The notes under the pieces were generated by a model. It saw nothing but the letters and a program-made list of their open reading frames with translations, searched no databases and was not told the DNA's origin. From a virus (lineage: Duplodnaviria > Caudoviricetes), in IMG/VR virus record IMGVR_UViG_3300009183_002303, positions 1 to 36,061 of that record: a stretch of 36,061 bases of DNA. The stretch is one strand, 5' to 3'. Positions 2,753-28,055 of this stretch are shown here, in pieces. Within the stretch, counting starts at the first letter, position 1, and each line of letters starts with the position of its first letter. The position numbers and the translations under genes were made by a program.

Positions 2753-4033
2753 ATGGCGCTACAAATTAGAAGAGGTTCAGACGCATCTCGAGGAACTACA
2801 AGATTCGCATCAGGTGAATTAATTTACACTACTGATCAAAAAGATTTGTGGGTTGGAGATGGCACACCTAACGGTGGAACACAAATTGCTCCTGTTAAAA
2901 GTGTTAACGGATATCCTGCAACTGTAGCTGGCGCAGGTGCTGGCAATGTTGTATTAACTACTGATAATATTGCAGAAGGTGCAAATACAGCAAGAAAATA
3001 CTACAGTTCAACATCTTCTAAAGCAGACGCCGCGGCGGCCTTGGTAGCTGGTAACGCTGGAAATACTGGAATCACATTTAGTTATAATTCAGGTACAGGC
3101 GCAATTAATGCTGTTCTTCAAAATGCAGGTGGGTTATCAACAGTATCAGGAGATCCTAATCCAGCATTAGGTGGCAATTTAAGTTTAAATTCACGTAATA
3201 TTACAGGTACAGGTAATGTCAATATTACCGGAACTATTACAGCTACTAGCTTTACTGGTACTGTAACTACCGATTCAATTACTCCAGTTACTAGTCTAGT
3301 TTTATACGGAGCTACTTCAAATCCATTAACTGTTAGAGGAATTCCAGCAGTAAGCGGATCTGTCAATATTGACATTAACACATTTAAAGGAACTGTCGGT
3401 TCACCAACAAATACTGGTGCTGGCGACCAAATTGGTTCTTTTAGAGCACTTGGTTATAGAGACGGAAATTATAAGATTGGTTCACAAATTACCACAGCAT
3501 GGACCAGCGATGCAGATTTTACAACAAACAATCCTAAATCAGTACTTTTCTTTGCTACTGGTAATAACAATGAAACACAAACTGGACTTCCTCCAGCATC
3601 ACTAGACGGTAACGGTACATTTACTGCCAAAATTATTCAAATACCTTCGTATGCGACTGGTGCGTATCCAGCAGGTGGAACAATAACAGCACTGTCTGGT
3701 GTGACTATTACAGGAGTTGCTGGACAATTCCAATGTGCATCAACTACGTTAACACTTGGTGCAACTGTAACAATTCGTGGTAATATTGCTGGCGCAACAA
3801 TTAGTGGATATACTAGCCCAACAACATACTATGTTATTGCTACTAATGGTTCGACAACATTTACATTATCAACTACCGGCAACGGAACTGGAGTTACAAC
3901 TAGTGGTACAACTCCAACAGGATTAACATATTCAATGCTGTTGCCGCAAAAAGGTATGATGATATTTGATAGTACTACAAATGACTTCATGGGCTTCAAT
4001 GGAACTAACTGGGTCGCATTTACTGGACCTTAA
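2753..4033 (+). CDS. tail fibre / virion fibre protein
   Basis: N-terminal MALQIRRG...GELIYTTDQKDLWVGDG (Mtd_N / hyaluronidase-N-like anchor), G/T/S/A/N-rich body, C-terminal GMMIFDSTTNDFMGFNGTNW motif; GGAGA RBS. Confidence 0.75.
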   Translation: MALQIRRGSDASRGTTRFASGELIYTTDQKDLWVGDGTPNGGTQIAPVKSVNGYPATVAGAGAGNVVLTTDNIAEGANTARKYYSSTSSKADAAAALVAGNAGNTGITFSYNSGTGAINAVLQNAGGLSTVSGDPNPALGGNLSLNSRNITGTGNVNITGTITATSFTGTVTTDSITPVTSLVLYGATSNPLTVRGIPAVSGSVNIDINTFKGTVGSPTNTGAGDQIGSFRALGYRDGNYKIGSQITTAWTSDADFTTNNPKSVLFFATGNNNETQTGLPPASLDGNGTFTAKIIQIPSYATGAYPAGGTITALSGVTITGVAGQFQCASTTLTLGATVTIRGNIAGATISGYTSPTTYYVIATNGSTTFTLSTTGNGTGVTTSGTTPTGLTYSMLLPQKGMMIFDSTTNDFMGFNGTNWVAFTGP

Positions 4034-4587
4034 TTCCAACTAGGGTACTTGGCTAGTTCTTCATAAAACTTATCGGGGTATAACTGCCAAACTGTTTGGT
4101 TAGTTCCCCGATAATTCATTTCCGCAACACGTTTCATCTGGCCAGTGGCTTCCATAGCTGGCCCAAATATACGATGTACTAGACGTTGCGTTCCAACACT
4201 ACTTTCATTACTAGTAATATACAATTTACTTCCTGCCGGTGCCCAGTTAATACAAGCTGGAATTAAGAACTGACTGGTAGCATGTTGGTGTGTTACAATT
4301 TGATTGCGAGTGCGCAAAGTAGTCATGGGAAGCTGATCTGTGAACACACAAGTACGTACAGCAATGCGATATGCGTCCAAGCCCATTTCTGGGAACGAAT
4401 GTGCGCCTACACTGCCTATGGCTTTATTGTTGTAGTAAAGAATCCAAACGCACCATTCTTGTTCCTTTGCTAGACTATCCACTAACATTTTTTGACTAGC
4501 GTTATTAACAAAGCCCTTAGACTCTGCCATAGCATAAAATTCTGCTAGATCTAAGTTGGGTGTCCATTGTACCATTTTAAAGTTCAT
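4030..4587 (-). CDS. putative GNAT-fold acyltransferase
   Basis: beta-strand pattern WILYYNNKAIGSVGAH...YRIAVRTCVF, helix SQFLIPACINWA, strand KLYITSN. Fold inferred by eye. Confidence 0.45.
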   Translation of the reverse strand: MNFKMVQWTPNLDLAEFYAMAESKGFVNNASQKMLVDSLAKEQEWCVWILYYNNKAIGSVGAHSFPEMGLDAYRIAVRTCVFTDQLPMTTLRTRNQIVTHQHATSQFLIPACINWAPAGSKLYITSNESSVGTQRLVHRIFGPAMEATGQMKRVAEMNYRGTNQTVWQLYPDKFYEELAKYPSWN

Positions 4588-4591
4588 ACAG

Positions 4592-4609
4592 TAATTATCA
4601 CCATAAATA
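4592..4609. promoter_or_regulatory. divergent late-promoter pair
   Basis: ATAATTA on the minus strand (4592-4598), 4 nt before the ATG at 4587; ATAAATA on the plus strand (4603-4609). Confidence 0.5.
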
Positions 4610-4636
4610 ACAGCAGAAACTAATTACGGAGAATTT

Positions 4637-5473
4637 ATGAAATATCATATCCACAGTAATGGATGGACTGTTATACTTGATGATTTTGATATGGCCACAT
4701 GCAGTCAAGATGATGTTAATCTGATTGGCAAATTAGTTAACGAATATACACTAGTGGTTGCTAAAAAACAGTTTGTTACAGTGGAAGAAGAAACTAGGTT
4801 TGTTAATATGTGGCACAATCCTATCCCGCAGTTAACACCCAAAGACGGCGATAAATTTACACACATTGCTGTAGATACAGAAGGAAAGATATTAAGAATT
4901 TCTGGAATTAAAGACGAGCATGGAAACGATTTGGGGTTAGCTGGACACGAAGATGAAATGGCGTGGCATTCAAACCCTCCAGAAGATCCAGCACGTAATT
5001 CAATAGTATATTTAAGAGCAGTAGAAGGGTCAGTAGGTTCACAAACAGAATGGAACAATACTATTTTGATATGGAATGAATTGTCCCAAGAAGAAAAAGA
5101 TAAGTTGCTCCCACTTAAAGTCATACCTAAAGTTGGTGCTAGTTTATCTGGCTATAAAGACAGAGATACTAATGGTCAAGAAATGCCTGACCAAACAAGA
5201 TTTAATCTTGTGCATACTAATCTAGCAGGTAAGACGGGTTTATATTTTCCGTTTGTGCAGTTATCGCGTTTTGAAGATATGACGGTAGAGGAAAGTAGAA
5301 AGATTATGGATCCACTTGCGGAACTGGTCACTCAACCCAAGTACTGTTATAAGCATGATTGGGAAGATGGAGATATGGTTATTGCAGAACAATGGCTAGG
5401 CATACATAGACGATTGCCTTTTAAAGACATAGGCAAAAGATTATTACATAGAGCTGGATTTGACGCACCATGA
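4637..5473 (+). CDS. TauD/TfdA-family Fe(II)/2OG dioxygenase-like protein (copy 1)
   Basis: WHSN; YKHDWEDGDMVIAEQWLGIHRR; RLLHRA, which aligns to the TauD W-x-x-GD...H-x-R and R-x-L-x-R motifs. Confidence 0.8.
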   Translation: MKYHIHSNGWTVILDDFDMATCSQDDVNLIGKLVNEYTLVVAKKQFVTVEEETRFVNMWHNPIPQLTPKDGDKFTHIAVDTEGKILRISGIKDEHGNDLGLAGHEDEMAWHSNPPEDPARNSIVYLRAVEGSVGSQTEWNNTILIWNELSQEEKDKLLPLKVIPKVGASLSGYKDRDTNGQEMPDQTRFNLVHTNLAGKTGLYFPFVQLSRFEDMTVEESRKIMDPLAELVTQPKYCYKHDWEDGDMVIAEQWLGIHRRLPFKDIGKRLLHRAGFDAP

Positions 5474-6333
5474 AATATCACTTACATGAAAATGGGTGGA
5501 CTGTTATCCTAGACGATTTTAACATGGCTACTTGTACACAAACTGAAATTAATTTAATAGAACGACTGATTGCCAAGTATACGCTAGTTATTGCTAAGAA
5601 TCAACACGTTAATAAAGACGAAGAAATTAGATTTATTAAAATGTTTCACAATCCAATACCTATCATGCCTCCCGGCAGTCCAGGCTTTGATAGTATTGCA
5701 GTAGATCCTGAAGGATTAATTTTAAGGGTAACAGGCGAAAAAGACAATGAAGGCAATGTTACCGGCATAGCAGGACACGATGAAGAACTAACATGGCATG
5801 CCAATGTGCCGTATGATCCAAATAGAAATTCTATAATTTACCTAAGGTCGGTGACAGGTTCAGCTGGATCTGTCACCGAGTGGAATAACACAATACTGGC
5901 ATATCACGATTTACCGCAAGTAACTAAAGATCAATTAGCAACACTTAAAATCGTTCCTAAGAAAGGAACAGAACGCGATATGCGGATTGGGTATGCTTTA
6001 GAAACCGGAGAAGAACAACCTGATCAAACACGGTTTGATTTAGTGTATACAAACATAGCAGGCCAAATCGGCCTATATTTCCCTTATAATCAAATAGCTC
6101 GATTTGATGGCATGACCGTAGAGGAAAGTAGAAAGATTATGGATCCGTTATTTGAACACGTTACACAATCTAAGTATTGTTATAAGCACAATTGGGACGA
6201 TGGAGATGCAACCATAGCAGAGCAATGGCTAGGTATACACAGACGCTTGCACTTCGATCGAATGGAATATCGAGTATTACACAGAGCAGGATTAGATTTT
6301 TCTCCGCAAAATTACGATGGAATAATAGAATGA
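5470..6333 (+). CDS. TauD/TfdA-family dioxygenase-like protein (copy 2)
   Basis: Paralogue of copy 1: WHAN, HNWDDGD, IHRR; ATGA coupling. Confidence 0.8.
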   Translation: MKYHLHENGWTVILDDFNMATCTQTEINLIERLIAKYTLVIAKNQHVNKDEEIRFIKMFHNPIPIMPPGSPGFDSIAVDPEGLILRVTGEKDNEGNVTGIAGHDEELTWHANVPYDPNRNSIIYLRSVTGSAGSVTEWNNTILAYHDLPQVTKDQLATLKIVPKKGTERDMRIGYALETGEEQPDQTRFDLVYTNIAGQIGLYFPYNQIARFDGMTVEESRKIMDPLFEHVTQSKYCYKHNWDDGDATIAEQWLGIHRRLHFDRMEYRVLHRAGLDFSPQNYDGIIE

Positions 6334-7202
6334 AATATCACTTACACGAAAACGGATGGGTAGTTAATATAGAAGACTTTGATATGGCCACATGCACCCA
6401 AGACGATATTAATCTAATGGCAAGATTAATTGCCAAATATACATTTGTAATTGTAAAAAATCAATTTCCAACACCAGCAGAAGAAGTAAGATTTGCTAAA
6501 CTGTTTCATAACCCGTTACCACTGTTTGGAAGAGACTCTGTAGAAGTTAGAACAAAAGGTATAGACCCTAATGATGCAGATCCTGAAGGTATATTTTTAA
6601 GAGTCACTGGTAAAAAAGATGACGGCTGGGAATTAGGAATAGCAGGGCATGATGAAGAACTTGCATGGCATTCAAATGTACCGTGGATAGCTGACCGAAG
6701 TTCTATAGTGTATCTACGAGCCGTGGAAGGATCTGTAGGATCTATAACTGAATGGAATAATACAATATTAGCTTACCACGATTTACCCGGCGAAATTAAA
6801 CAACAAATAGCAAACCTTAAAACTGTACCTTTGTCAGATGTTAGATTGGCATTATCGTTGCAAGGCGACGACATGGGCAAGGAAGTAGAAAATCAACACA
6901 GGTTTAACCTAGTACATACAAACATAGCCGGACAAACTGGCTTGTATTTTCCGTTCTTACAAATATCTAGATTTGATAGTATGACCAGAGAAGAAAGTAA
7001 GCCGTTATTAAACATGTTAGCAGAGCATGTAACCAATCCTAAATATTGTTATCAACATCACTGGGAAGACGGTGATGTGGCCATATCTGAACAGTGGTTG
7101 GGTATACATCGCCGACTACATTTTGATCGAATGCAAGAAAGAATATTGCATAGAGCAGGCTGGGACTTTCCTATACAAAATTATCTTGAGGATATAGCAT
7201 GA
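6330..7202 (+). CDS. TauD/TfdA-family dioxygenase-like protein (copy 3)
   Basis: Start moved to 6330 (MKYHLHENGW, ATGA overlap, matches paralogues); WHSN, HHWEDGD, IHRR. Confidence 0.8.
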   Translation: MKYHLHENGWVVNIEDFDMATCTQDDINLMARLIAKYTFVIVKNQFPTPAEEVRFAKLFHNPLPLFGRDSVEVRTKGIDPNDADPEGIFLRVTGKKDDGWELGIAGHDEELAWHSNVPWIADRSSIVYLRAVEGSVGSITEWNNTILAYHDLPGEIKQQIANLKTVPLSDVRLALSLQGDDMGKEVENQHRFNLVHTNIAGQTGLYFPFLQISRFDSMTREESKPLLNMLAEHVTNPKYCYQHHWEDGDVAISEQWLGIHRRLHFDRMQERILHRAGWDFPIQNYLEDIA

Positions 7203-8074
7203 AATATCAAATGCACGAAAACGGTTGGACTGTCATTGTAAGTGATTTTGATTTTAATTATGCTACTAAAGAAGATATAGATCTAATATCTAGATTAATT
7301 GCCAAGTACACAATAGTAGTTGTAAAAAATCAACAACTATCTTTAGAAGATGAAATACGTGTGTGTCATATGTTTAAAGATCCAGAGCCAGCTTTTAAAC
7401 CAACTGAAGGTAGTTTTAAAAGATCAGCGGCCGATTTAAAAATTGATCCAACTGGTTTAATTTGCCGAGTCACTGGAGAAAAAAACGAAGACGGTGAAAC
7501 TGGTATTGCTGGTCATGCTAGCGAAATGGCGTGGCATAATAACATGCCATACGAACCAACCCGTAGGTCAATTGTATGGCTGTATGCTGTGCGCGGGTCT
7601 AACGGATCAAGAACTAGTTGGAATAATACTATATTAGCATATAACGACTTAGACCAAGAAACTAAAAATAAATTTAAAGAACTTAAATGTATATATTTTA
7701 GTGGAATTAATCTTGCTAACGAGTATGTTAGCACAGGCAACGCAGAAGATGAAAACAAACAAGTAATTGAAACATTCACTCCGCCTTTAGTTTATACAAA
7801 TAACGCCAATCAAACAGGACTTTATTTTTCACCGTACTTACTAGAAAGATTTGTAGGGTTAACTAAAGAAGAAACTAAAGCAATTGCTGATCCGTTATTT
7901 GAATACGTAATACAAGACAAGTATTGTTATCATCACGATTGGCAAGACGGTGATGTTGTAATATCAGAACAGTGGTTGGGCATACATAAGCGTTGGCCGT
8001 TTGAACAAATTGAAAAACGTATGTTACACCGTGCGGCTTTTGAATTTACCGACCAAGATTATACTAACCTGTAA
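7199..8074 (+). CDS. TauD/TfdA-family dioxygenase-like protein (copy 4)
   Basis: WHNN, HDWQDGD, IHKR, RMLHRA. Confidence 0.8.
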   Translation: MKYQMHENGWTVIVSDFDFNYATKEDIDLISRLIAKYTIVVVKNQQLSLEDEIRVCHMFKDPEPAFKPTEGSFKRSAADLKIDPTGLICRVTGEKNEDGETGIAGHASEMAWHNNMPYEPTRRSIVWLYAVRGSNGSRTSWNNTILAYNDLDQETKNKFKELKCIYFSGINLANEYVSTGNAEDENKQVIETFTPPLVYTNNANQTGLYFSPYLLERFVGLTKEETKAIADPLFEYVIQDKYCYHHDWQDGDVVISEQWLGIHKRWPFEQIEKRMLHRAAFEFTDQDYTNL

Positions 8075-8642
8075 ACTGAGATTCTAACCCTTTGCGTTTT
8101 AAATCGTACCAATTTCTAATAGTGTCGTTCATTTGCTCAACACCAATTACTGGTACTTGAAAAGGTGCTTCCACAATCCATTTAATAGCAGTCGCTATAT
8201 GTGCAGGGTCCATTGTAGTTTTTAAACCTAAAGGTTTGGCTGAAGACTTAAATCCGCCTACAGTTACATGTGTAACTTTAAATCGTTCATCAGTTAGACT
8301 TAACCCTAATTCTTTTAAATCATTCGATTCTTTATATTTGCTAGGATTTGCTGGAAGCCATTTAGCATACTCGTCTATACTTCCAATATTAAACACATGG
8401 CCTTCTGCCCATACTTCTCGAGCTATAGTTAATACAGTTGCTTGCAAACCATTCTTAACGTATGCATTGTTTACAATTACATTGTAGTCTGTTAAAATAG
8501 ATTTTAATCTAGATAAACCGTCTTCTGTTGATAAATCATATCCGTTAGATCGACTTACAAAAGTACTGTTAGGAAATAGTTTTTTAATTTCCATAGCAAT
8601 GCCTATGTGTTCTGGATTTCCAGTACAAAGTACTTTAAACAT
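8064..8642 (-). CDS. short-chain dehydrogenase/reductase-like protein
   Basis: VLCTG...GIA Rossmann start, VIVNNAY, VFNIGS; YKESN in place of YxxxK. Confidence 0.7.
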   Translation of the reverse strand: MFKVLCTGNPEHIGIAMEIKKLFPNSTFVSRSNGYDLSTEDGLSRLKSILTDYNVIVNNAYVKNGLQATVLTIAREVWAEGHVFNIGSIDEYAKWLPANPSKYKESNDLKELGLSLTDERFKVTHVTVGGFKSSAKPLGLKTTMDPAHIATAIKWIVEAPFQVPVIGVEQMNDTIRNWYDLKRKGLESQFTG

Positions 8643-9318
8643 TTAATGCCTTTGCAATAAAATCTGCCGGATAGTTTGTTCTAAAACTATTCCAACATAA
8701 CTGATCCATTGTTTGCCAAGATTGAGGAACATTCCATTCTATACCCATGCTACTTAAATGTTTGCGTATTTCATCTTGTCTAGTGCTATAGATATGGCTT
8801 TCAACTTCTTCGATACTAATATTTGGTTCTGTTACACGGTAGGTGAAAAAGTAATTGATACTTTTTAATTTTCCATCTACTATAAAATAACTACTTGGGT
8901 GCATACTGTATTTGTGCAATCCAAGACTTTTATGGGCGTGAATTATTTCTAACATTTGATCCTGCCAATCCGGCAATATTGTATCGTAGTTAGTCATGTC
9001 GCATCCTGCTTGTTCCCAAAAATCAGGACCGTCTATTTCTAAATACAATTTTCTGTTATCAAGGTCAATATTTTTAATTGTAGGAACTAAGTTAGGGTAA
9101 TTGTTTCTCATCTGCGTAAGGTAGTTAACTTCACGCAACCATTTTTCCTCCATTTTAGAAGGATCTACTACTTGGTTTTTTCCTTTGTGATATTCAGTAT
9201 CATTATGATACCATTGCACAAAAGTTTTTTTATCTTCACTAATAAGACTAGTGTAGATTAGGTTATTACGGCATAGGCCTTGACCGGGTACGTTATTGTA
9301 GTAGTATTCGTATTTCAT
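8635..9318 (-). CDS. protein-kinase-like fold protein (degenerate motifs)
   Basis: REVNYL (alphaC Glu), VPTIKNID...LYLE hinge, HKYSMHPSS catalytic-loop position, LKSINYF at the DFG position. Confidence 0.5.
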   Translation of the reverse strand: MKYEYYYNNVPGQGLCRNNLIYTSLISEDKKTFVQWYHNDTEYHKGKNQVVDPSKMEEKWLREVNYLTQMRNNYPNLVPTIKNIDLDNRKLYLEIDGPDFWEQAGCDMTNYDTILPDWQDQMLEIIHAHKSLGLHKYSMHPSSYFIVDGKLKSINYFFTYRVTEPNISIEEVESHIYSTRQDEIRKHLSSMGIEWNVPQSWQTMDQLCWNSFRTNYPADFIAKALNV

Positions 9319-9881
9319 AATGTGCTAAACATGATAAAAGAAATGTTTTCGTTGCCCTCATTAACTATGTTAGCATAGCTTGTTTTGTCTAACATGTCAA
9401 TGGTGTAAATTTTACCAACTTCTGGAACAACACTATAATGACCGTTACTGTCATATGCACGTAGCCAATTTGTTCCATTAGTTACTAGCGGTACAAAAAC
9501 TCTTATATGTGGTTTAACTCCAGCAGTCCATTTACCAATATAATCGCCAGGTTCAAAGGTCATTACAAAAGATCTAAACACATTGTTAAAATTATCTTTG
9601 ATCATCTTAAAGAATCCAAATACTAACGCAGTATCTTTAAAATACTCTGGACCTTCATCATGCGGATCTATATCGCAATGATAAGGAAACGCAAGATCAT
9701 TGTAAATAGTCTGCAACCCGTAACCGTGCATTGTCTTTAAACTAAAATGATCGCTAAGGCTTCTTGTATCATTGTGATCTTTTATGTAGTGCCAATGATA
9801 ATGTTCGTAGTCAGTTTGTAGTTGTTTTAAATAAGCAACAGCATCTTGCGGATTATAGGTTAACTCAAGTGTTGTTATCAT
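9315..9881 (-). CDS. AspH/cupin-like 2OG-oxygenase-fold protein, degenerate
   Basis: RSFVMTFEPG...RVFVPLVTN...GKIY...IVNEG resembles AspH-like neighbours, but the HxD and distal His are not at the expected positions. Confidence 0.45.
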   Translation of the reverse strand: MITTLELTYNPQDAVAYLKQLQTDYEHYHWHYIKDHNDTRSLSDHFSLKTMHGYGLQTIYNDLAFPYHCDIDPHDEGPEYFKDTALVFGFFKMIKDNFNNVFRSFVMTFEPGDYIGKWTAGVKPHIRVFVPLVTNGTNWLRAYDSNGHYSVVPEVGKIYTIDMLDKTSYANIVNEGNENISFIMFSTL

Positions 9882-10466
9882 TTAGTATCCAAGTATATGC
9901 AATGTAAACTTTGGAGTCATGCCAGCGTTAATGCCAGTATGCCATTCTTTATAATTTTTCCATTTAAAAATAGAACCTTCAGGAACATTATATATGTAAT
10001 CATCTCCAATTATAAAAATATGTCCCATAGTAGGAGAACACATTGTTATGCTATAACGTTTAATTTTTCCTTTTTCTAAATATGTTTGTTCGTTGTCGTC
10101 TACGTCCCAGTGCCATGGAGCCATGTAGCCAGGATCAATACGACTAATCCACGCACGATGTACTCCTGTTAAACGTAAGTAATTAGCCACGTCATTGACT
10201 AGATCTTGTTTAAAATCTTTGCCTGGGTAATAGTTAATCCACTGCATAGAATTGGTGTTAAACTTGGCATCTTTCCACATTTTATTAATATCTGCATAGC
10301 CAGGGTCGTCTTGGTGTGCTGTTAACCCAGCCATTACATCGGTACCAGGATTGTTAATTAGTTCCTGTGTAAGATTGATTAAATTATGTCTGTAATAGTA
10401 TCCTAAGTAAATGGTACTTTTAAGACTAGTTAGCAATCGTTTGTCAAATACAGATGTTGTAATCAT
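9882..10466 (-). CDS. AspH-like Fe(II)/2OG oxygenase
   Basis: RAWISRIDPGYMAPWHWD...WHTGIN; start set at 10466 (ATGA overlap). Confidence 0.75.
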   Translation of the reverse strand: MITTSVFDKRLLTSLKSTIYLGYYYRHNLINLTQELINNPGTDVMAGLTAHQDDPGYADINKMWKDAKFNTNSMQWINYYPGKDFKQDLVNDVANYLRLTGVHRAWISRIDPGYMAPWHWDVDDNEQTYLEKGKIKRYSITMCSPTMGHIFIIGDDYIYNVPEGSIFKWKNYKEWHTGINAGMTPKFTLHILGY

Positions 10467-11185
10467 TCTAAGTATCCAAATGCCCACAAGCGTTCTTTAC
10501 ACCACCAGCAAGATCCGCAGTGTCCTTCTGTATGCGTGTCTGTTTCACAACTTCTAGTAAATGGAAACAAATCTTTTTCTATTGCTAGCTCTTTATATAA
10601 CGTAGCAATACCTTGTTTAGTATAATTAATCATTGGATTATAAACACGGCTATCTTGCGAAAGTTTTTCTTTGTATTGGCCGTCTATAGTAAGTGCAGGA
10701 TTACTACAATCAGTACCCAGCGGAATGTTTATTTCTAAACCAAATAACGGATGCACATTATCATAATGTCTCCATTGTCTATGCCACTCAGGGCCGGGCA
10801 TTCCCCAAGATGCATAAACATCATCAGGTGGAAATTTGGTTAATCCTGTGTATAAAATATCAATGTCACCCGAGTCTAAAGCATCTTTATAAATTTTAAA
10901 AATCATCTCCGGTGTTTGATGAGCCGCAGGCATCTTATGTACAAAGTAATTAGTTTTGCCTGTAAGTTCTGCACATCGTTTAACTACTTTATCAAACGCT
11001 GGTTCTAGTACAAATTGTCTTTTAGCACCGAGCAAGTTATAGATATGTAAATCGTGCTTTATTTCTTTCATTAACAAGTATAGTATAACAGCACTATCAG
11101 CGCCGCAACTGGTACTAATACCTACTGGACCATCTCTATAAATGCCAAAATCAATATTGGCTAATTTCATGCTCTCTAATTTCAT
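10463..11185 (-). CDS. QueC-like PP-loop ATP pyrophosphatase
   Basis: SCGADS PP-loop; TRSCE...HCGSCWWCKER C-terminal zinc site. Confidence 0.75.
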   Translation of the reverse strand: MKLESMKLANIDFGIYRDGPVGISTSCGADSAVILYLLMKEIKHDLHIYNLLGAKRQFVLEPAFDKVVKRCAELTGKTNYFVHKMPAAHQTPEMIFKIYKDALDSGDIDILYTGLTKFPPDDVYASWGMPGPEWHRQWRHYDNVHPLFGLEINIPLGTDCSNPALTIDGQYKEKLSQDSRVYNPMINYTKQGIATLYKELAIEKDLFPFTRSCETDTHTEGHCGSCWWCKERLWAFGYLE

Positions 11186-11189
11186 ACAA

Positions 11190-11222
11190 TATTTATTTAG
11201 GTGGCCGGCCCTGCCATAAATA
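11190..11222. promoter_or_regulatory. divergent late-promoter pair
   Basis: ATAAATA on minus (11190-11196) and on plus (11216-11222), each exactly 4 nt upstream of an ATG. Confidence 0.65.
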
Positions 11223-19420: not shown

Positions 19421-20243
19421 CCCTTCTAAATATAAAAGACTATTTGCCTTTGGGTGTAGTTTTACAAGATACTATTGGCCGACTTGGGCCGACATTCTTT
19501 CACAGGATATTCCATACTACGAAAATTGGGGTTGGGGCGGTGCTGGCAATCTTTATATTTCAAATGCCATTATGGAGGCAAATAATAGGCACAAGTTTAC
19601 TAAAGATGATTTGATTGTAGTAATGTGGAGTCAAAAAGGTCGAGAAGATCGTTACGTTAATAACGAATGGATGGTAACTCCAGGAGCAATGCTAGAAGAG
19701 CGTTATGGTACTGACTGGATTAAAAGATTTTATGATGACCGTGGTGCAGTCATAAGAGATCTTGCATTAATACAATCAACGCAAATATACTTAGATACTT
19801 TAGATTGCGATTGGATTAACATGGCAATTAACAGTTTTGCCAACGGAGATGTTGATAAAATAAGAAAAACTGCTCCGGGGTATTTTAAAGGTAAAGCAGA
19901 CTGGAACGATGTTATTGTAGAGTTGCACAAAGGAACAATTTCAAATTTACTTAAAAATCAAGATGTGCTTACGTGCTACAAAGATGTATTTTTAAAAATA
20001 GAACCGTCAGTGTTTAATATACTACAAGACACTAAGGAATACAGATCACGTGGTAGACCTAACAATGGCGATGGGCATCCTACACCTGCTGAGATTTTAA
20101 AATATCTCGATTTAGTGTTTCCTAACAATACTATTAGCAGTGCGGCAAGAGAGTATGCGGTTTCGTTTGAAGAACAAATATGGAGTCAAAAAACTACTAC
20201 AGAAATTTTTGAATCTAAATCTGTTAAAATTGCTAGATTATAA
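19401..20243 (+). CDS. SGNH/GDSL-like hydrolase or acyltransferase
   Basis: FGCSFT (block I), NWGWGGAGN (block II), DGHPTP (block V). Confidence 0.65.
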   Translation: MRLQTINPSKYKRLFAFGCSFTRYYWPTWADILSQDIPYYENWGWGGAGNLYISNAIMEANNRHKFTKDDLIVVMWSQKGREDRYVNNEWMVTPGAMLEERYGTDWIKRFYDDRGAVIRDLALIQSTQIYLDTLDCDWINMAINSFANGDVDKIRKTAPGYFKGKADWNDVIVELHKGTISNLLKNQDVLTCYKDVFLKIEPSVFNILQDTKEYRSRGRPNNGDGHPTPAEILKYLDLVFPNNTISSAAREYAVSFEEQIWSQKTTTEIFESKSVKIARL

Positions 20244-21545
20244 CAAATCGCCCAACTCTGGAAATATTTTTCTAAAATCTGTTCCACGTTGTTGATCCGT
20301 TACAGTTAAATAATCCTCAAGCATAGGAAGTTTGTTAGACCAATCTTCTGCCATCATGTACTGTACTAATCCTTGCCAACGTTTAACTCCGTATGGGTTA
20401 GTCATAAATTCGTTATCAGATAATCGTCGAGAACAGAAATAGTCAACTTGTTTTACAACTTTGTCTTTTAAATGTTGTGGAAGTACTCTAACATTTAGAT
20501 AGCTAGGTAAGTATACTAAGTGTGTTCCTATTAAGCCGGCGCCGTAAGGAGGCAAGTTAATCTTTTTGAAGTTTTTACTTTCCTTCCAATGCACTAAGTC
20601 TGGTATATTCATTACATTTAACAACTGCACAGCGCAGGCAATATTAACTGTAATGTTGTTAGGAGTATCGTCTAGTCTTTCTAAGTTGGTAACAACATCA
20701 CTCCATTTGCTAGGATAACGTATATAATCATTACGGACGCCTACTGCATCGACACTAAAGTTGAATTTAACTTCTTTAAAATGTTTCCATAAATCAAATA
20801 ATTTTTCTGGAAGTTCAAGCCCGTTAGAATTATAACGCAAGACGCATAATTTGGCGGCACCTGTTTCCACCATAAACTCTAATATCTTGTAGTGTTCAGG
20901 GATTAACAGAGGTTCTCCGCCTGCAAAATAAAGCTCGCGAATATTATATGCTTGCAAACGCATATCACTTAGGAAACTACCTTTCTTATACCACGTATAA
21001 TCAAAGTCGCTATTCCATTGCTGATCTTGTTTTAGTTCAATAGTTTTATATTTAGGATATTGCAGTTTCCACTCTTTAATCCAACTGCTACTATCGTGTG
21101 GACTACACATAATACATTTAAGTTGGCACAAATTTCCTAAGCGCAAATCAAAATAAGGAATGTCTACAGGTAAACTACCATCTTTGCCGGTAGCATCTAT
21201 AATAGTTGGCATATCCAATCGTTCGTTCCAAACTACGGATTCCCATTGACGTTTACTTACAATACCTTTAGATTCTTCTTCAAAGCATTTGGTACAGCTT
21301 GGAGGAACTTTATTATCTAGCATTTGAAGGCGAACTGCCTTCATATAGTCACTATTCCAAACTTCGGCAATGGAATGTGTTTGCAAATTCATAACTTGGC
21401 CGTTTTGCTTTACAAGGCCAACATCTTTAACATCCTCTTCACCTGCGCCACTAGCATTAGCAGTACAACACACACGAACATCGCCGTTAGGGCGAGTAGC
21501 AAGATGTATCCATGGCAAAGGGCATATAGATGTTTTATTTGTCAT
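20238..21545 (-). CDS. radical SAM protein with N-terminal SPASM/twitch-like domain, paralogue of 16525-17772
   Basis: ICPLPW...VCC...CTKC; CQLKCIMC; AGGEP; YIRYPSKW. Confidence 0.85.
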   Translation of the reverse strand: MTNKTSICPLPWIHLATRPNGDVRVCCTANASGAGEEDVKDVGLVKQNGQVMNLQTHSIAEVWNSDYMKAVRLQMLDNKVPPSCTKCFEEESKGIVSKRQWESVVWNERLDMPTIIDATGKDGSLPVDIPYFDLRLGNLCQLKCIMCSPHDSSSWIKEWKLQYPKYKTIELKQDQQWNSDFDYTWYKKGSFLSDMRLQAYNIRELYFAGGEPLLIPEHYKILEFMVETGAAKLCVLRYNSNGLELPEKLFDLWKHFKEVKFNFSVDAVGVRNDYIRYPSKWSDVVTNLERLDDTPNNITVNIACAVQLLNVMNIPDLVHWKESKNFKKINLPPYGAGLIGTHLVYLPSYLNVRVLPQHLKDKVVKQVDYFCSRRLSDNEFMTNPYGVKRWQGLVQYMMAEDWSNKLPMLEDYLTVTDQQRGTDFRKIFPELGDLL

Positions 21546-22617
21546 TGTTTAAGATTTTTTGTTTGTCTATTTTTATAAAAGGGCTATTAGGGCCGCACAT
21601 GATTATACAAGTACTACTTGATTTTTCAGTCCATTTCTTTTGCCACATTGTTTGCCACGCATCAGTTTCTACTATATTTTTAAGGCCTAATTCTAAAACA
21701 TTTAATTTATTAAATCCTAGTACTTGTTGTTGTATAATGGCGCCTTCTTCTAAGACAGAATCGTCTTCATATAAACTGTATTGCTTTAATAAATTGCTAT
21801 CATAGTTCGTATATAAGAACGCACCTATCATACAGCACGGGCTTAATGTATATTGAGCATCAATGTATAGTTCTTTGTTGCGTAGACTTTGGCAATCTAT
21901 AATTTCAGCGCCAGCCCATTTTTGATGCCCGGCTACCTGTTTACGTCCAATAAACTCTACTATCGTATCTTCTGGCTGTTCTATATTATAAATGAACTTG
22001 CCGCCTTTATCAACTACTGGGAACGGTCGGCTAAATCGTTTACTATTTTTTACAGTAAATTTTTTAAATCCTAGTTCACAGGATAATTGTTCAGCTTGTT
22101 TAACTTGGTGTTGATTATGTTTAAATCTAATAAAGCACCATTCCGCTTTGCCGCCCGAGTTAATAAATGCACTTGAGTTTTTTATTATCTTATCAAAATC
22201 TGTACCAATACGATATGTTGAATGTGTATCCTCTAAGCCATCCAATGCAAACACTACTATATGATTAGTGGGCAAACTTTCTGCTAAACTGCGCCACCAG
22301 TTTTCACTACGGGCACTGCCATTAGTATGGATCTGTAATTCTATTGTTGGGGATACAGAAGATACATAACTACACATTTTAATTAAATCGTTGTTAAGAA
22401 TAGGATCTCCAAAGTCTCCACAAAAATTTAATAATCTAAGTTGAGATAACACATCAACCGTAAATATTTTTACAAAATTATCGTAAGTCCAATCATTCAA
22501 TTTAAGTAGCGGGTTATCTATGCCGCCGTGAATGTTTCGAGGACACATTGGGCAACTAGCTTGACAACGGTTAGTTATTTCAATTTGTATCATTTCTAGC
22601 TGGTTAAATTTAAACAT
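21535..22617 (-). CDS. radical SAM protein with C-terminal Cys-rich domain
   Basis: CQASCPMC; CGDFGDP; HTNG; ALDG; C...YID....PCC...CIIMC. Confidence 0.85.
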   Translation of the reverse strand: MFKFNQLEMIQIEITNRCQASCPMCPRNIHGGIDNPLLKLNDWTYDNFVKIFTVDVLSQLRLLNFCGDFGDPILNNDLIKMCSYVSSVSPTIELQIHTNGSARSENWWRSLAESLPTNHIVVFALDGLEDTHSTYRIGTDFDKIIKNSSAFINSGGKAEWCFIRFKHNQHQVKQAEQLSCELGFKKFTVKNSKRFSRPFPVVDKGGKFIYNIEQPEDTIVEFIGRKQVAGHQKWAGAEIIDCQSLRNKELYIDAQYTLSPCCMIGAFLYTNYDSNLLKQYSLYEDDSVLEEGAIIQQQVLGFNKLNVLELGLKNIVETDAWQTMWQKKWTEKSSSTCIIMCGPNSPFIKIDKQKILNNDK

Positions 22618-24157
22618 TTGATTTCCAGCTTAACTTTTTATCGATATAAGTTTGCACAAAGTTTTTAAATTTATCGTCGGAAGTATTTAAATTAGATAAC
22701 TTATAATCGTATACATTTTCATATTGATTTGTTTCGTGGTATACAAACAGCCTGTCAGTTAAGAACGGATTACAACCTCTAAGGCCTTTGAAACCATTGT
22801 CTGAATAAAATTCTTGAACTAAGGTTTCTGCTTGGTACCAATCCATAGTATCATGTTTCCAGATAACGACATCATTTCTAGTGCTACCCACGCCACCACC
22901 CCTAGGAGTTGTAGATTGGAATAGAACATTACCGCTATCGTCTTTAGTTACAGTATATCCAGGATTTTGTCTAGCTTCTAATTTAACTAAGCCGTTGCCT
23001 ACAAGTTCTTTAGTAAAACGACTTTGATTTGTTAATGTTTCATCATAGTCGGGAACTTCTAAAATATGGGCACTGGCACTTTGTCTAGACCATTTAGTGT
23101 TTAACCATTCTAACGAGTTGTTCCATGACTCTACACTTTCGCCTGGTATACCACAAATCATCTGTATGTTTGCTCTGTAGCGTTTAGGTGCATGTATGTC
23201 AGTATAGGCTTGAAAGTCTAACAAACCGTCTTGTAACTTTTCAGGATCCATTCCCTTACGTACAAGTTTACCAGCCGCATGATTAAATGTTTCAATACCC
23301 ATACTATGTCCAAGGAAGCCTAGACGGATATAAGTATCCCAATGCTCACGATGTTTGACAACTAAGTCTCCACGAGCAAATCCACATATCCAAGGATTGT
23401 AATTTAATTCATCTACCGCATCGGCATACTTCTGTAATTTCTCAGGACGATCATTAAATGTTTCGTCCATAACACGCCAGTTCTTAATACCCCATTTTTC
23501 AAATCCTGTTTGCATTTGCAGTTTAAATTGTTCTTTGCTTACACTAACATCTTTAGCCTGTCCTATGATAGGAAAGTTACAATAACTACAACTAAACATA
23601 CAGCCTCGGGCAGTTTCAATCTGCGGGCACTCGTATGCTAACATGAAATCTCTAGCTTCGTAATCAACAAGGTAACTGTCTAATGGCGCACTTGGATAGT
23701 GATGCAAACCGCGTATAACTTTCTTGTTTCCAAAGAAAGCAGAGTCTGTCATTAACGGTGCTCCTAGTGTTCCTACAAGATGCTTACACAATGCCAATAT
23801 AGCATTTTCACCATAACTGTCAACCCAATAGTCCACCCCTTGTGCCGGAGTAGTCAACGCATTGTTTCCTCCTATTACAACTGGAATAGTAGGATATGAT
23901 AGTTTAAGCCATGCTATGAATTCGTTTAAGTAAGGACTCCATGGATTTAAAAATGCTGTGCCAAAACAAAACATAACTGTATTTGTATTAGTGCGGGAAC
24001 GAACTAGTTCTTGTAATTCTTCCAATTGCCAAAACGCAGTAAAATCTACCACTTCGGCATCCCAATCGTTCATCCGTAAAAATGTTGCTACACGATGTGT
24101 CCACAAGGATCTTTCCCAGCGTTTACCTGTTAAACTAAAAAATATTGCGTGTCTCAT
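22610..24157 (-). CDS. B12-binding-domain (BchE / class B-like) radical SAM protein
   Basis: N-terminal VATFLR...EVVDF...VVIGG...GE pattern; ETARGCMFSCSYC; DETFN; MGIETF; GIPGES. Confidence 0.75.
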   Translation of the reverse strand: MRHAIFFSLTGKRWERSLWTHRVATFLRMNDWDAEVVDFTAFWQLEELQELVRSRTNTNTVMFCFGTAFLNPWSPYLNEFIAWLKLSYPTIPVVIGGNNALTTPAQGVDYWVDSYGENAILALCKHLVGTLGAPLMTDSAFFGNKKVIRGLHHYPSAPLDSYLVDYEARDFMLAYECPQIETARGCMFSCSYCNFPIIGQAKDVSVSKEQFKLQMQTGFEKWGIKNWRVMDETFNDRPEKLQKYADAVDELNYNPWICGFARGDLVVKHREHWDTYIRLGFLGHSMGIETFNHAAGKLVRKGMDPEKLQDGLLDFQAYTDIHAPKRYRANIQMICGIPGESVESWNNSLEWLNTKWSRQSASAHILEVPDYDETLTNQSRFTKELVGNGLVKLEARQNPGYTVTKDDSGNVLFQSTTPRGGGVGSTRNDVVIWKHDTMDWYQAETLVQEFYSDNGFKGLRGCNPFLTDRLFVYHETNQYENVYDYKLSNLNTSDDKFKNFVQTYIDKKLSWKSNV

Positions 24158-25245
24158 GCTATTATTGTATTTTTAATTTCTATAAAATCTTGGTAGTCTT
24201 TGGCTTTAGGTATACACATACCGCACCCGCAACGTTTGTTAGGACATACTATAAATTTATCTTTTTGCTCAAGTCGGTTTCTTAAATCTTCAAGTAACTT
24301 ATCACTATCATCTAAATTACCAATTGGGCCACGCTGTTCGTCGTACAATGCTTGGCAGGTTTGGTGATGATAAACTAAATTTGTTTCTTGGTCAACATAT
24401 AAGAAATACCAATCGACCATACAATTCCATTTTTCAAAATTAGTATTAATTAATTTAATAGGTTGCCATGCCCCGTCAACTTTGCCTTCCACACATCGAC
24501 CGCCACAACAAGCACGGCCTAGTTGGTCTCCACCTGCAACTGATTTAGGCTTGTCTTCCAATCCCATCTCGGTCCAAAACCATGCTTGCTGTTCCTTTGA
24601 ATATTCATGACTAGTTCTGCGATTTGTGCCGTCTGCATCAATAAACCAACCTTTACGTATAATTGCACCATCACCAATTGGTCTTGGATTTGCACGTATT
24701 CCTTGTTCTTTTAATTGATTGTATACTCCAGTTGTTTCTTCCCAATGGTCTGCATGTAACATTACATTAACTTGTAGCTTAACATCTGTTTTGGATAATG
24801 CTATGATGTTTTTTATTGCACGTTCTTTTAACTTAGGATCTGCTTCTGCATGGTAGCTGATAGTTACATGGTTAATTGTATCTATAATCTTCTTAGAATA
24901 ATTTTCTCCCCAGGCTCCGTTAGTAGTAAGACCTAGATAATAAAATTCAGGCTGAGACTTAATATGATCTAGTAGATTCCAGAAATTAGGATTGGCAGTT
25001 GGTTCGCCCCCTGTAAAATTAATATTAGTGTGCGTATCTTGTTTACGTTTAGAATTATACAAGTTAGCCCATGATTGTATAAAGCTAAATGTCTTTTTAA
25101 ATTCTTCTAAACTTTTAAAATTACTAGTATTGTTATGTCTGGATGATTCACAATAAGAGCAGTCGTAGTTACATCGTTTGCCAGTATCCCAAACAACTGA
25201 AAATGACTCATTATTAGAATTGCGTATTGCGGAAGTTTCAATCAT
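24154..25245 (-). CDS. radical SAM protein, paralogue of 18524-19420
   Basis: CNYDCSYC; FTGGEPT; TTNG; ISYHAE; CPNKRCGCGMC. Confidence 0.85.
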   Translation of the reverse strand: MIETSAIRNSNNESFSVVWDTGKRCNYDCSYCESSRHNNTSNFKSLEEFKKTFSFIQSWANLYNSKRKQDTHTNINFTGGEPTANPNFWNLLDHIKSQPEFYYLGLTTNGAWGENYSKKIIDTINHVTISYHAEADPKLKERAIKNIIALSKTDVKLQVNVMLHADHWEETTGVYNQLKEQGIRANPRPIGDGAIIRKGWFIDADGTNRRTSHEYSKEQQAWFWTEMGLEDKPKSVAGGDQLGRACCGGRCVEGKVDGAWQPIKLINTNFEKWNCMVDWYFLYVDQETNLVYHHQTCQALYDEQRGPIGNLDDSDKLLEDLRNRLEQKDKFIVCPNKRCGCGMCIPKAKDYQDFIEIKNTIIA

Positions 25246-26318
25246 AGGGTTTCTCTTTCAGCAAACTGGTCAATTGGTTTGCTTAATGCATTAGTTCCGC
25301 AAGCTCTAGCACACGTTACCATTTTAGGGTCTGACCAATATCGATCCCACACCGTTTGATAGACCTCAGAGTCTACAATAGATTTAATACTGCGATACTG
25401 TGTATCGATGTTGTTGATTCCACCAAAGTCTTCAATCATAGCATTGTATTGGTCTACTATTACTTGCCTAACTTCTAGTATAGAAGATCCATCTTCTGTA
25501 TAGTTGTAAGGAGTACTTGCTAGCCAGCAACAGGGAAATACTCTGCCAAACGCATCTATGTAGATTTCTTTGTTTTGCTGTGCATAGCAATTGATTGTGC
25601 TGGCCGCTACTATTTGTTTATAGCTGTCAAGTACCTTGCGGTCAATAAAAACAATTTTACTTTCATTAGCTGGTTCAAGATAGTGTGTTACTTTGCCTAG
25701 TTTATCAAGTACAGGGAATTTGCTTTCTAGTACAAATCTACTGCTGTCTTTCATAACAAATCGTTGAAATCCTAATTCGCTTGCAATAGATTTGGCAGTT
25801 TCTACTTCGTGGGCATTGTGTTTAAATCTAATAAATGCCCATTCGGCAATGCCACCGGCTTTTATATAGGATACTGCATTGCGAAGTATTTGATTATAAT
25901 CAGTACCTATGCGATATAAACTATGCGTTTCATCCAGCCCGTCTATAGCAAACACTACTAAATGATTCTCTGGCATTGCGCGAGCAAGACGTTCCCACCA
26001 ACTGCTATTTCTAAGGCTACCGTTTGTATGTATTCTAATTTCAATATTTGATTTATACTTGACACTGTATTCAATCATTTCTATTAAATCGTTATTAAGC
26101 AACGGGTCACCAAAATTACCGCAAAAATATAAGGCGTCAACTTGATCCAGCACTTCTTGATTTATTGTATGTTTAAAATGTTCAAGAGTCCAGCTGTTAA
26201 TTTTAATTAACGGATTATCAACACCGCCGTGGTGATTGCGACTGCACATGGGACAACTAGCTTGGCAGTTATTTGTTATTTCTAAATGTATTTGTTTCAG
26301 TTCAGAGAATTTAAACAT
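25242..26318 (-). CDS. radical SAM protein, paralogue of 21535-22617
   Basis: MFKF start; CQASCPMC; CGNFGDP; FPCC; CARAC. Confidence 0.85.
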   Translation of the reverse strand: MFKFSELKQIHLEITNNCQASCPMCSRNHHGGVDNPLIKINSWTLEHFKHTINQEVLDQVDALYFCGNFGDPLLNNDLIEMIEYSVKYKSNIEIRIHTNGSLRNSSWWERLARAMPENHLVVFAIDGLDETHSLYRIGTDYNQILRNAVSYIKAGGIAEWAFIRFKHNAHEVETAKSIASELGFQRFVMKDSSRFVLESKFPVLDKLGKVTHYLEPANESKIVFIDRKVLDSYKQIVAASTINCYAQQNKEIYIDAFGRVFPCCWLASTPYNYTEDGSSILEVRQVIVDQYNAMIEDFGGINNIDTQYRSIKSIVDSEVYQTVWDRYWSDPKMVTCARACGTNALSKPIDQFAERETL

Positions 26319-27093
26319 TTTTTATTTTATTCTTAAATTCTTCAGTAAACACCCCGTCAATGCGTACAGCGTATGCCGGCTCCGGAATAGGATCGCCACC
26401 ATGTGTGTCCTTGTCGTTCCACCATCCTACACGGGACTCTATGTAAAATCGTTCTTTGGTTTCTGCATTGTAAACGTAAAACGGACGCTTTGTATTGACC
26501 CTGACGTGTATAAATTCTGAATCAGTATTTGATTCAGGGTCTGCTAAATTGTCTCTATGTTCAAATGAAATTCCAAACGAATCAACAGATACTATGTAGG
26601 CCCTGCCCACGTGTGTAAATATTCCAGCCGTTACTAGACTTTCTATCCATGCCAGTAGCGAAGGAAAATATTCTGCAATTTCGTTTGGTGGACGTTTTTT
26701 AGGATCAGCTTTCCAACCAGGAACGCCATCCCAGAAATTATAAACAGTATAGTGGTCGTGAGCACCGTAAGCATATTTCATAAATTCAACAAATGCGTGA
26801 TTGTCCTGATCGCGAATGGCCAATCCTGTTTGCTTTAACGGATCGTCGTCTGGCAATGCCATAAATTCTTCATACGCATGAAACATCGGTTTAACTTTGT
26901 CAAACACATAGCTACGCTGTTCGTCTACGATTGGATTTCTAAATTGTCCACGTATTGTTAATTTTTTAGACAATGCCATACCTTTCAGTATATCAAGTTG
27001 AATAGCATCAAACGTTGTTAAGTCAATAAGATGTTCTAATTCAAAATGTGTTTGTCCGTAAGACCCAATCATTCCAGGTTTAACTGCCGGCAT
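26311..27093 (-). CDS. Fe(II)/2OG oxygenase-fold protein, paralogue of 13312-14118
   Basis: FEHRD...EFIHVR...WWND..THGG...YAVRIDG. Confidence 0.6.
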   Translation of the reverse strand: MPAVKPGMIGSYGQTHFELEHLIDLTTFDAIQLDILKGMALSKKLTIRGQFRNPIVDEQRSYVFDKVKPMFHAYEEFMALPDDDPLKQTGLAIRDQDNHAFVEFMKYAYGAHDHYTVYNFWDGVPGWKADPKKRPPNEIAEYFPSLLAWIESLVTAGIFTHVGRAYIVSVDSFGISFEHRDNLADPESNTDSEFIHVRVNTKRPFYVYNAETKERFYIESRVGWWNDKDTHGGDPIPEPAYAVRIDGVFTEEFKNKIKNV

Positions 27094-28055
27094 TATATTT
27101 TCCTTTTGGGTATTTTGCTATCTGCACTACTTACGCACATAGGAGTAATACATATTTTAGGTTCTTTGAATAATTCAAAACCTGTAAGGATATTTCCTAT
27201 ATTATTTTCCTTACAACTGTAAGCACGTTTAACTTCAGTACCTCTTATTATAACACTTTGATAGCCTGCATTGCAACCCCATCCTTGGAACTTATTAAAT
27301 CCTAATGCGTTAAATCTTTCTGCTTGATCGATGTAGTAATCTTTCTCTCCATCATTAAGTCTAATTTGAAAAACTTCTCGTTGTTCATATTCGTCCTGCA
27401 TAATTTTAATCATTTCAGGAGTGTATCCTTCTACAATAGCAGTAGCAGTATCATTGCTTTGTGGTTTGAGTGTTACATTAATCCCACGTTTGCGTAATCG
27501 TTCACAACGTTCTAGTGTTTCAAAAAACTTGGCTGGAACCATTACTTGATTGACAGTAACGTGTACTAGTTCGTACATTAACTGTAGACACTTGTCGCCA
27601 AACTCTTGCTCCTTGGCAAACTCATCATGAAAGCTGGCTGTAATACTTCTACGTTGTAACATCTCAGTGTTCTTACACCAAGTGTTCCACCATTTACTAC
27701 CAGGCGACAAATTAGTAGTCATGTGTATACTCTGGTAAGTACTTTCAAGTTCGTCTAGGTATTTTACCAATTCGGGTAATTGTTTATATGCTGTAGGTTC
27801 GCCACCACTAAAGCTCCAATGAAATCTATCAAAACCATTAGCTCGTGCCTGACGCTTAATTTCATCTATTGCAGACTTGTACACATCTAAAGTTTGGTAA
27901 TCTAATTTGTCGCTTCGGGCATATGGCCAACAATAGCTACAGTTATAGTTACAAAATCTACCCAGTATCCAACTTACGTTAAATAGTTTGGTATCCAACA
28001 TGGTTTGTTGTCCAAATTGGACTATATTTTGGAAAGGAATTTGGCTAAAGTTCAT
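27093..28055 (-). CDS. radical SAM protein, paralogue of 18524-19420
   Basis: CNYNCSYC; SGGEPT; TTNL; ASFH; CNAG...SC...GN...C....C. Confidence 0.85.
   Translation of the reverse strand: MNFSQIPFQNIVQFGQQTMLDTKLFNVSWILGRFCNYNCSYCWPYARSDKLDYQTLDVYKSAIDEIKRQARANGFDRFHWSFSGGEPTAYKQLPELVKYLDELESTYQSIHMTTNLSPGSKWWNTWCKNTEMLQRRSITASFHDEFAKEQEFGDKCLQLMYELVHVTVNQVMVPAKFFETLERCERLRKRGINVTLKPQSNDTATAIVEGYTPEMIKIMQDEYEQREVFQIRLNDGEKDYYIDQAERFNALGFNKFQGWGCNAGYQSVIIRGTEVKRAYSCKENNIGNILTGFELFKEPKICITPMCVSSADSKIPKRKI

Follow-up and report, generated by a model that had tools for sequence, protein, structure and literature searches.

Variable islands linked to tail fibres, blocks of radical S-adenosylmethionine (SAM) enzymes and arrays of oxygenases have all been described in phages. 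The host recognition cluster of pelagimyophages and cyanomyophages is a variable island in T4-like genomes, carrying tail fibres, GT8 glycosyltransferases and radical SAM cassettes (Zaragoza-Solas 2020, PMC7029224). Campylobacter phages CP220 and CPt10 possess an interchangeable block of 10-12 genes, five of which encode radical SAM enzymes, and the sequence of this block differs between related phages (Timms 2010, PMC2853527). Tandem arrays of ten or more oxygenases of several families are present in cyanophage Syn9 (Iyer 2010, PMC2938197), and ten-gene dioxygenase arrays in cyanophages also appear in PMC7824862. None of these systems comes with a tested product in the passages concerned. Here, we describe an island of 28 consecutive enzyme genes (positions 4030-28055) in a stretch of 36,061 nucleotides from a virus of the Caudoviricetes (IMG/VR record IMGVR_UViG_3300009183_002303, positions 1 to 36,061; the whole stretch is called the window below). 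We propose, with a probability of roughly 45%, that the island is a late, swappable kit which tailors a glycan borne by the virion.

Like the host recognition cluster, the island is variable, linked to a fibre gene and part of a T4-like phage. It differs in that the cluster occupies the interval from VrlC to gp14 within the structural block, as described in PMC7029224, whereas the slot of the island is bordered by a phosphoesterase gene and a tRNA-like RNA, ~100 kb away from the main fibre block of relatives G016 and G017, and carries a single fibre-like gene together with ten radical SAM genes, glycosyltransferases being absent. The CP220/CPt10 module is half the size of the island and was read as metabolic support, with no oxygenase array or fibre link reported in the relevant part of PMC2853527. 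The Syn9 arrays, as far as they are treated in PMC2938197, come without a radical SAM complement, and the island's TauD enzymes belong to a clade with a His-x-Asn iron site. No description of an island with this composition was found in the open-licence literature. New here are the glycosyltransferase-free variant, the slot with three kits, a hidden GT-A/methyltransferase and the His-x-Asn clade.

The 28 open reading frames (ORFs) abut one another (gaps of -25 to +49 nt) and form seven alternating operons, with a fibre-like gene (2753-4033, + strand), whose product is a candidate target of the enzymes, as left neighbour and a tRNA-like RNA (28132-28249, +) as right neighbour. The ORF list and conservation at the protein level bear out the run of enzyme genes described in the initial annotation, and the island is indeed more AT-rich than its surroundings (36.7% GC vs 42.7% and 40.1% in the flanks; gene-level p=5e-5). 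The initial annotation had also seen no precursor peptide, and with these gaps there is no space for a separate gene encoding one. A classical cluster for ribosomally synthesised and post-translationally modified peptides (RiPPs), which has a separate small precursor-peptide gene, was rejected, the largest intergenic gap inside the island being 49 nt.

The source is an uncultured freshwater giant phage, T4-like and with a genome of ~360 kb. An identical 48-kb contig in IMG/VR is rated 13% complete, so the whole genome should measure about 360 kb; relatives sharing the flank genes reach 345-356 kb, and a T4-type capsid gene is found in the records of four relatives out of four. The metagenomes listed as carrying the sequence are freshwater or unlabelled, and none of the 19 runs listed is an RNA run. 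The assembly of the island is sound. Contigs of one sequencing run span 2001-21900, the depth over the island is even (~31-33) and that of the shared left flank sums to 387 in the same run, and near-identical pieces of the island occur in three runs from other studies. Compared with the nearest fetched relative, pN (nonsynonymous) is lower than pS (synonymous) for 28/28 island genes, and the ratio of nonsynonymous to synonymous substitutions (dN/dS) is 0.03-0.35 in the 17 genes with unsaturated dS. The island is real, under selection and unexplained.

Expression signals connect the island with the fibre-like gene. The motif ATAAATA occurs only six times in the window (18.3 expected), and a motif scan placed all six copies at operon starts, namely those of the fibre-like gene (2698-2704, +) and of five of the seven island operons: the TauD operon (4603-4609, +), a divergent pair (11190-11196, -; 11216-11222, +) and a second divergent pair (16489-16495, -; 16512-16519, +, as TATAAATA). 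The T4 late consensus is given as TATAAATA in PMC1524935. The two remaining operons carry TTAAATA (upstream of RSa3, at 28064) and a variant (GNAT gene). TAAATA was found upstream of 19/21 fibre relatives vs 0/37 upstream regions of three flank genes, and at 45/70 operon starts vs 23/191 inner genes when the slots of ten relatives are summed; the flank units carry sigma-70-type sites instead of ATAAATA. Sharing of the fibre gene's motif by the island operons points to late expression, which had been proposed together with a link to structural genes.

The link to structural genes is strengthened by the position of the slot. Contigs of ten relatives hold it behind the phosphoesterase and fibre-like genes, with contents of 9.9-31.9 kb (the AAA gene was used as left border for G010 and G012, and G014 has a different right border). 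The fibre-like gene is recognised beside the slot in eight of the ten, and the kit occurs beside fibre genes at two separate sites. Relative G011 (347 kb) does not have this slot and was left out of the synteny counts; this complete phage (L133-L150) has 19 radical SAM matches scattered along its genome. Three kits were distinguished. The first (5/10 relatives, as in the window) has GNAT, the kinase-like KIN1, Tes-like radical SAM enzymes, the oxygenase-like OXL1 and the core of the twitch radical SAM enzyme TWI2. The second (2/10) adds to the same TWI2 core Kelch proteins, a canonical small kinase, an AMP-binding ligase and AspH cupins; its Kelch-like beta-propeller genes come in pairs (L045:14156-15283 and neighbours). 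The third (3/10; L277:7963-19839, L282:4212-19675, L286:9406-19354) has no or one radical SAM gene, and common to all three of its loci are fatty-acid-desaturase-like, Rieske, QueC-like, GNAT, ATP-grasp, nitronate-monooxygenase-like and DctP solute-binding protein genes.

Within the kits, homologues are linked and their order is conserved rather than scattered. KIN1 adjoins a GNAT in 21/22 distinct cases, and of the 27 distinct TWI2 genes whose upstream sequence reaches 5 kb, 26 are accompanied by a methyltransferase, 23 by an RSb gene and 20 by RSa3. The window is rearranged, with the GNAT shifted beside the fibre-like gene and a class I methyltransferase-like gene (29104-29709, +) outside the island. 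The limits 4030-28055 given in the initial annotation hold for the window but leave out a gene that lies inside the island in relatives.

A carrier for the kit's product is suggested by these relatives. A gene of ~480 codons with no Pfam match is present in 7/7 radical-SAM-rich sister islands and in 20/22 KIN1 loci. The model predicted for its protein (pLDDT 89, a per-residue confidence score) shows a GT-A fold in the N-terminal part, followed by a methyltransferase fold in the C-terminal part. The best match of the GT-A fold is the chlorovirus capsid glycosyltransferase 2p6w (Z 11.1, root-mean-square deviation 3.8, 165 aligned), which we take to be the first domain of A064R. The next match is STIV A197 (Z 10.6). 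According to PMC9614988, A064R of chlorovirus PBCV-1 joins a glycosyltransferase to a methyltransferase and finishes the capsid glycan. The sister-island protein likewise combines a glycosyltransferase fold with a methyltransferase; the two are 6% identical, and it has two domains vs three in A064R. P0065, one of the 120 best database relatives, is this GT-A/methyltransferase fused to a QUE1-type domain, a single case which ties the QueC-like gene of the window to the GT-A/methyltransferase pathway.

Both near-complete relatives also possess a glycosyltransferase module, in which two GT8 genes resembling glycogenin (E 6e-7) are accompanied by two more DxD proteins; it adjoins tail-collar fibres and is ~100 kb away from the slot (G016, G017). 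In G005 and G006, the kit of the window lies directly beside this module, which was not seen in three shorter fragments of relatives. For one gene of the clade, 286 related stretches were found in IMG/VR. Six of 50,697 records of cultured phages contain a match to TWI2, the best being Ralstonia phage RsoM2USA (23% identity); no cultured phage match was found for a flank gene or for the GT-A/methyltransferase. RsoM2USA genes 347-354 (MG752970), annotated as hypothetical, contain the glycosyltransferase module, the twitch radical SAM gene and a methyltransferase behind large fibre-like genes. This set is minimal, with one twitch radical SAM gene in that stretch, and RsoM2USA is the only cultured phage among those examined with the clade's module in this combination. 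The missing glycosyltransferase of the initial annotation is thus true of the window, but the argument built on it does not extend to the sister islands and the clade, where the GT-A/methyltransferase and the module shift the weight towards a glycan carrier.

The enzymes of the island belong to few families, most of them repeated. All ten predicted radical SAM genes carry CX3CX2C and match PF04055, eight of them above cut-off. TWI1 (16507-17772, +; start likely at 16525) and TWI2 (20238-21545, -; a core gene of the clade's islands) have an N-terminal twitch and pass NCBIfam NF033640 with 337 and 411 bits (cut-off 170), a family whose model description assigns no reaction. Two others (11227-12270 and 12267-13334, +) match GDGT-MAS (E 2e-16), and share the N-terminal metal ribbon and the radical SAM core with Tes/GDGT-MAS (NF045702, PDB 7tol). 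They are shorter (347-355 aa vs 526 aa), and the similarity stops near residue 160-200. Identity with the tetraether synthase Tes was rejected, as the scores of 73 and 77.5 bits (cut-off 450) cover the N-terminal half only. A viperin-like ddhNTP synthase was also rejected (best score 56 bits, NF038283 cut-off 180). The B12-binding type is represented by the gene at 22610-24157 (-), whose best models (PhpK, ladderane, ApyD) all score far under cut-off. The remaining five were assigned by PF04055 and motif: RSa1 (18467-19420, +), with a Cys-rich C-terminus, RSb1 (21535-22617, -), RSa2 (24154-25245, -), RSb2 (25242-26318, -) and RSa3 (27093-28055, -), which forms the right edge of the island.

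Of the 11 genes predicted to encode oxygenases of the Fe/2-oxoglutarate (2OG) type, nine are backed by profile or local links, two by motif only, and one does not retain the metal triad. Four tandem TauD-family genes (4637-5473, 5470-6333, 6330-7202 and 7199-8074, +; 47-61% identical) reach 86-110 bits with PF02668 (TauD/TfdA; cut-off 27). All four have His-x-Asn..His at the iron site where aligned TauD has His-x-Asp, so that the canonical triad (His-x-Asp/Glu..His) was rejected for them. The same His-x-Asn is found in 37/51 distinct TauD relatives and in 114 of the 120 best database matches, and no paper on such a triad in the TauD family was found in the open-licence literature. Two genes match AspH under cut-off, one of them (15818-16483, -) having a C-terminal extension, and three are tied to the TauD/AspH genes by local BLAST and hidden Markov model (HMM) searches. 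Among these five weaker cases are a cupin with HxD..H (9882-10487, -), two small cupins (14121-14621 and 14623-15147, +) and the AspH-like cupin in which the triad is missing (9315-9881, -), recognised by local HMM links and motif check. OXL1 (13312-14118, +) and OXL2 (26311-27093, -) were assigned by an invariant HxD..H motif. When the OXL alignment was compared with bacterial and archaeal genomes, one of 44 candidate stretches was confirmed, on a 4.6-kb contig of a metagenome-assembled genome, so no cellular gene context is available for OXL.

Two QueC-like genes, QUE1 (10463-11185, -) and QUE2 (17763-18527, +), have the SxGxDS loop and the C-terminal Cys cluster of PP-loop adenylating enzymes, and the QueC-like profile (PF06508) matches one above and one under cut-off. 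True QueC (7-cyano-7-deazaguanine synthase) was rejected for both: QUE1 scores 18.9 bits and QUE2 gives no match (TIGR00364 cut-off 150.3). The only solved-structure match of the profile is Cap9 (E 4e-4, ~50 positions). Loop and Cys cluster are common to Cap9/QueC and the island proteins, and CBASS or Qat partner genes are absent.

KIN1 (8635-9318, -) is predicted to have a protein-kinase-like fold (pLDDT 93.5, Z 12.3), with a pseudokinase and Rio1 among the best matches to known folds; KIN2 (15144-15821, -) is the second kinase-like protein of the island. In active kinases, the catalytic-loop Asp lies in an HRD/HxD motif. The family consensus of KIN1 and KIN2 is KYSMHP and KMALYP at this place, and both were rejected as active protein-kinase-like kinases, the fold being present and the catalytic Asp replaced. 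As judged from the sequences, canonical catalytic residues are missing from the two kinase folds and from one or more of the oxygenases. The initial annotation had named these two pairs correctly by fold, and its further assignments, which find no match in the profile libraries, gain partial support. The GNAT-like acyltransferase (4030-4587, -) was predicted by language-model search, with Atlas look-alikes scoring 0.96-0.98, one Atlas cluster being 20% PF00583 and a relative matching FeeM weakly (E 0.008). The short-chain dehydrogenase/reductase (SDR)-like protein (8064-8642, -), in which Tyr-x3-Asn replaces Tyr-x3-Lys, is a weak assignment by a chain of local HMM links, and the SGNH-like protein (19401-20243, +) is called by motifs. 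Profile searches against solved structures were empty for the GT-A/methyltransferase, GNAT, OXL and GT40 alignments. There is a fair chance of new chemistry in the island.

Under the proposed tailoring of a virion-borne glycan, the operons with the fibre gene's motif would be expressed late, in the cytoplasm, during assembly. Given what is known of their families, the TauD and cupin oxygenases, radical SAM enzymes, SDR and methyltransferase may oxidise, rearrange and methylate a small soluble substrate, for which a sugar, an amino acid or an acyl unit are candidates. The QueC-like, GNAT and SGNH proteins could then activate and transfer this building block. The carrier glycan, in this phage as in its relatives, would be made by the clade-wide module beside the long tail fibres; in sister islands it may also be made by the GT-A-fold/methyltransferase, whose gene is absent from the island of this strain. 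The building block would finally be placed on the glycan of the virion's fibres, and swapping a kit would change the surface chemistry of the particle as O-antigen clusters do for cells.

Several results weigh against this proposal. As the initial annotation had noted, profile libraries and motif checks find no glycosyltransferase, transporter or scaffold synthase in the window, and HMMs of the GT-A/methyltransferase and of other glycosyltransferase-like clusters found nothing in the six frames of the window or in 14 kb at the start of the longer contig. The core module of this phage is presumed to lie in the ~310 kb outside the available sequence. The GT-A-fold protein of the sister islands matches a guanylyltransferase nearly as well (Z 10.3) and has no DxD at the usual place. 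The third kit has no GT-A/methyltransferase, and its desaturases, Rieske and DctP proteins fit lipids or small acids better than sugars. The TauD, QueC-like and kinase-like folds are atypical of glycan enzymes. The fibre assignment is weak in the window itself, where PF18454 gives 22.5 bits, under cut-off, to the Mtd_N N-terminus of the gene (relatives 36.8-43.1 bits, above cut-off), with no PHROGs tail match; its body is variable. In G016, one of the near-complete relatives, the motif is also found in front of genes that do not belong to structural blocks, and no gene could be assigned to a late factor (the gp33 profile matched nowhere, controls included; gp55 was not searched), which leaves late expression of the island likely only. 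The desaturases of the third kit and the glycosyltransferase-free island are the main ones among these results. The initial annotation had read the island as a pathway which decorates structural proteins or their attached groups, or builds a metabolite; the probable timing and the gene linkage agree with this, whichever of virion protein, glycan and metabolite may be the target.

It is rather unlikely that residues of the fibre or another virion protein are modified directly, by hydroxylation, radical cross-links, amidation or N-terminal conjugation, in a RiPP-like manner with no glycan involved. The absence of a glycosyltransferase from the island would fit, and AspH-like cupins, twitch/SPASM-type radical SAM enzymes and GNAT proteins are generally known to act on peptides. 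Tail-collar proteins were predicted as substrates of linked dioxygenases in PMC2938197 (Iyer 2010), and Cap9 is described in bioRxiv 2025.04.06.647259 as conjugating a deazaguanine nucleobase to the N-terminus of a protein. FolE-, QueD- and QueE-like genes occur in relatives away from the island (L261, L264, L137), as a possible source of 7-carboxy-7-deazaguanine. However, TauD enzymes take small molecules, and the closest solved relatives of those in the island are sulfonate, sulfate and phenoxyacid dioxygenases. Conservation of the core enzymes also far exceeds that of the fibre body (mean column identity 26%), and glycosyltransferase-fold genes accompany the kit in 7/7 radical-SAM-rich sister islands.

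A free small molecule, such as a modified amino acid, an acyl-amide or a nucleoside, could instead accumulate late and be released at lysis against competitors, grazers, host defences or co-infecting phages; we consider this improbable. Lysis would stand in for an exporter, and the four TauD enzymes, SDR, methyltransferase and B12-type radical SAM enzyme resemble natural-product clusters, as do the AMP-binding ligases, pyridoxal-phosphate enzymes, halogenase, carbamoyltransferase and sulfotransferase of the relatives. Metabolites were also proposed for the oxygenase arrays of cyanophages (Iyer 2010 and 2021, in the parts of PMC2938197 and PMC7824862 concerned). Yet such a product leaves unexplained the constant position beside fibre genes at two sites and the linked glycosyltransferase-fold genes, and no scaffold synthase was found in the window.

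There is little to recommend remodelling of host envelope lipids or lipopolysaccharide as a block to superinfection. Two enzymes are related to the lipid-coupling GDGT-MAS, one cupin matches LpxO weakly, desaturases are present in the third kit, and remodelling of this type was proposed for the host recognition clusters in PMC7029224. The proteins of the island apparently are soluble, since none exceeds a mean hydropathy of 1.7 over 19 residues, and an early function would be expected of superinfection exclusion, whereas the motif of the fibre gene is found in the island and sigma-70-type promoters in the flanks. Hypermodification of phage DNA or RNA bases is more doubtful still: QueC, radical SAM enzymes, 2OG oxygenases, GNAT proteins and kinases do generally occur in phage base-modification pathways, but no TET/JBP, DpdA/TGT, nucleotide hydroxymethylase or amino acid:DNA transferase family in the profile libraries is matched by any island gene, the genes are located with the fibre gene and not in the replication block, and the kit as a whole is exchanged between relatives. 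An assembly artefact or decaying, unselected cargo, which the cupin with no triad and the Asp-less kinase folds might suggest, is largely refuted by the read depth, the recurrence in other studies, the intact ORFs, the conserved order and the low dN/dS.

The tRNA-like RNA at the right border, already named in the initial annotation, is real by covariation although ARAGORN and Rfam do not detect it. It has an acceptor stem, a CCA end, D and T loops, a long variable arm and a central arm that varies in length and contains no conserved anticodon. Across 33 copies, all four helices show compensatory changes, and the fetched loci contain 102 matches, duplicates included. A sigma-70-type promoter (28097-28125) lies just 5' of it. 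On the opposite side of the slot, the gene at 3-812 (+) encodes an RNA-binding protein (phrog_850, DUF7788), presumably Ro/TROVE-like, and adjoins a kinase-like AAA gene and a phosphoesterase gene in an RNA-repair-like neighbourhood. The RNA may serve as a tRNA decoy or work together with the Ro/TROVE-like protein. A free-standing HNH endonuclease gene (30792-31376, +) lies between two conserved flank genes and is not at this place in the mapped relatives. A second small variable enzyme island is found near a PTPS-like gene in G016 (~207-221 kb, L264-L265), G017 (L276), G018 (L283) and G019 (L285), and contains radical SAM, PLP-like, GT-B-like, AMP-binding or halogenase genes.

Going beyond the glycan proposal, it is conceivable, though less likely than not, that the whole clade runs a combinatorial 'virion serotype' chemistry, in which a fixed slot receives exchangeable kits of 10-37 enzymes and non-sugar, radical-made blocks are put on the particle surface, new chemistry coming from the TauD enzymes with His-x-Asn, the Asp-less kinase folds, the short relatives of Tes and the Cap9-like ligases. 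If true, the pathway would be the first of natural-product scale to yield a component of the virion. Since the cultured RsoM2USA has a minimal version, the idea of virion decoration is testable now. Whichever the target, much enzyme chemistry is packed into the island, with ten radical SAM enzymes, a TauD iron site containing Asn and kinase folds in which the catalytic loop is replaced. Decoration of virions by the kit would mean that an abundant clade of aquatic phages varies its surface chemically, besides varying protein sequence, which would bear on host range, on evasion of grazers and defences, and on the recognition of phage particles.

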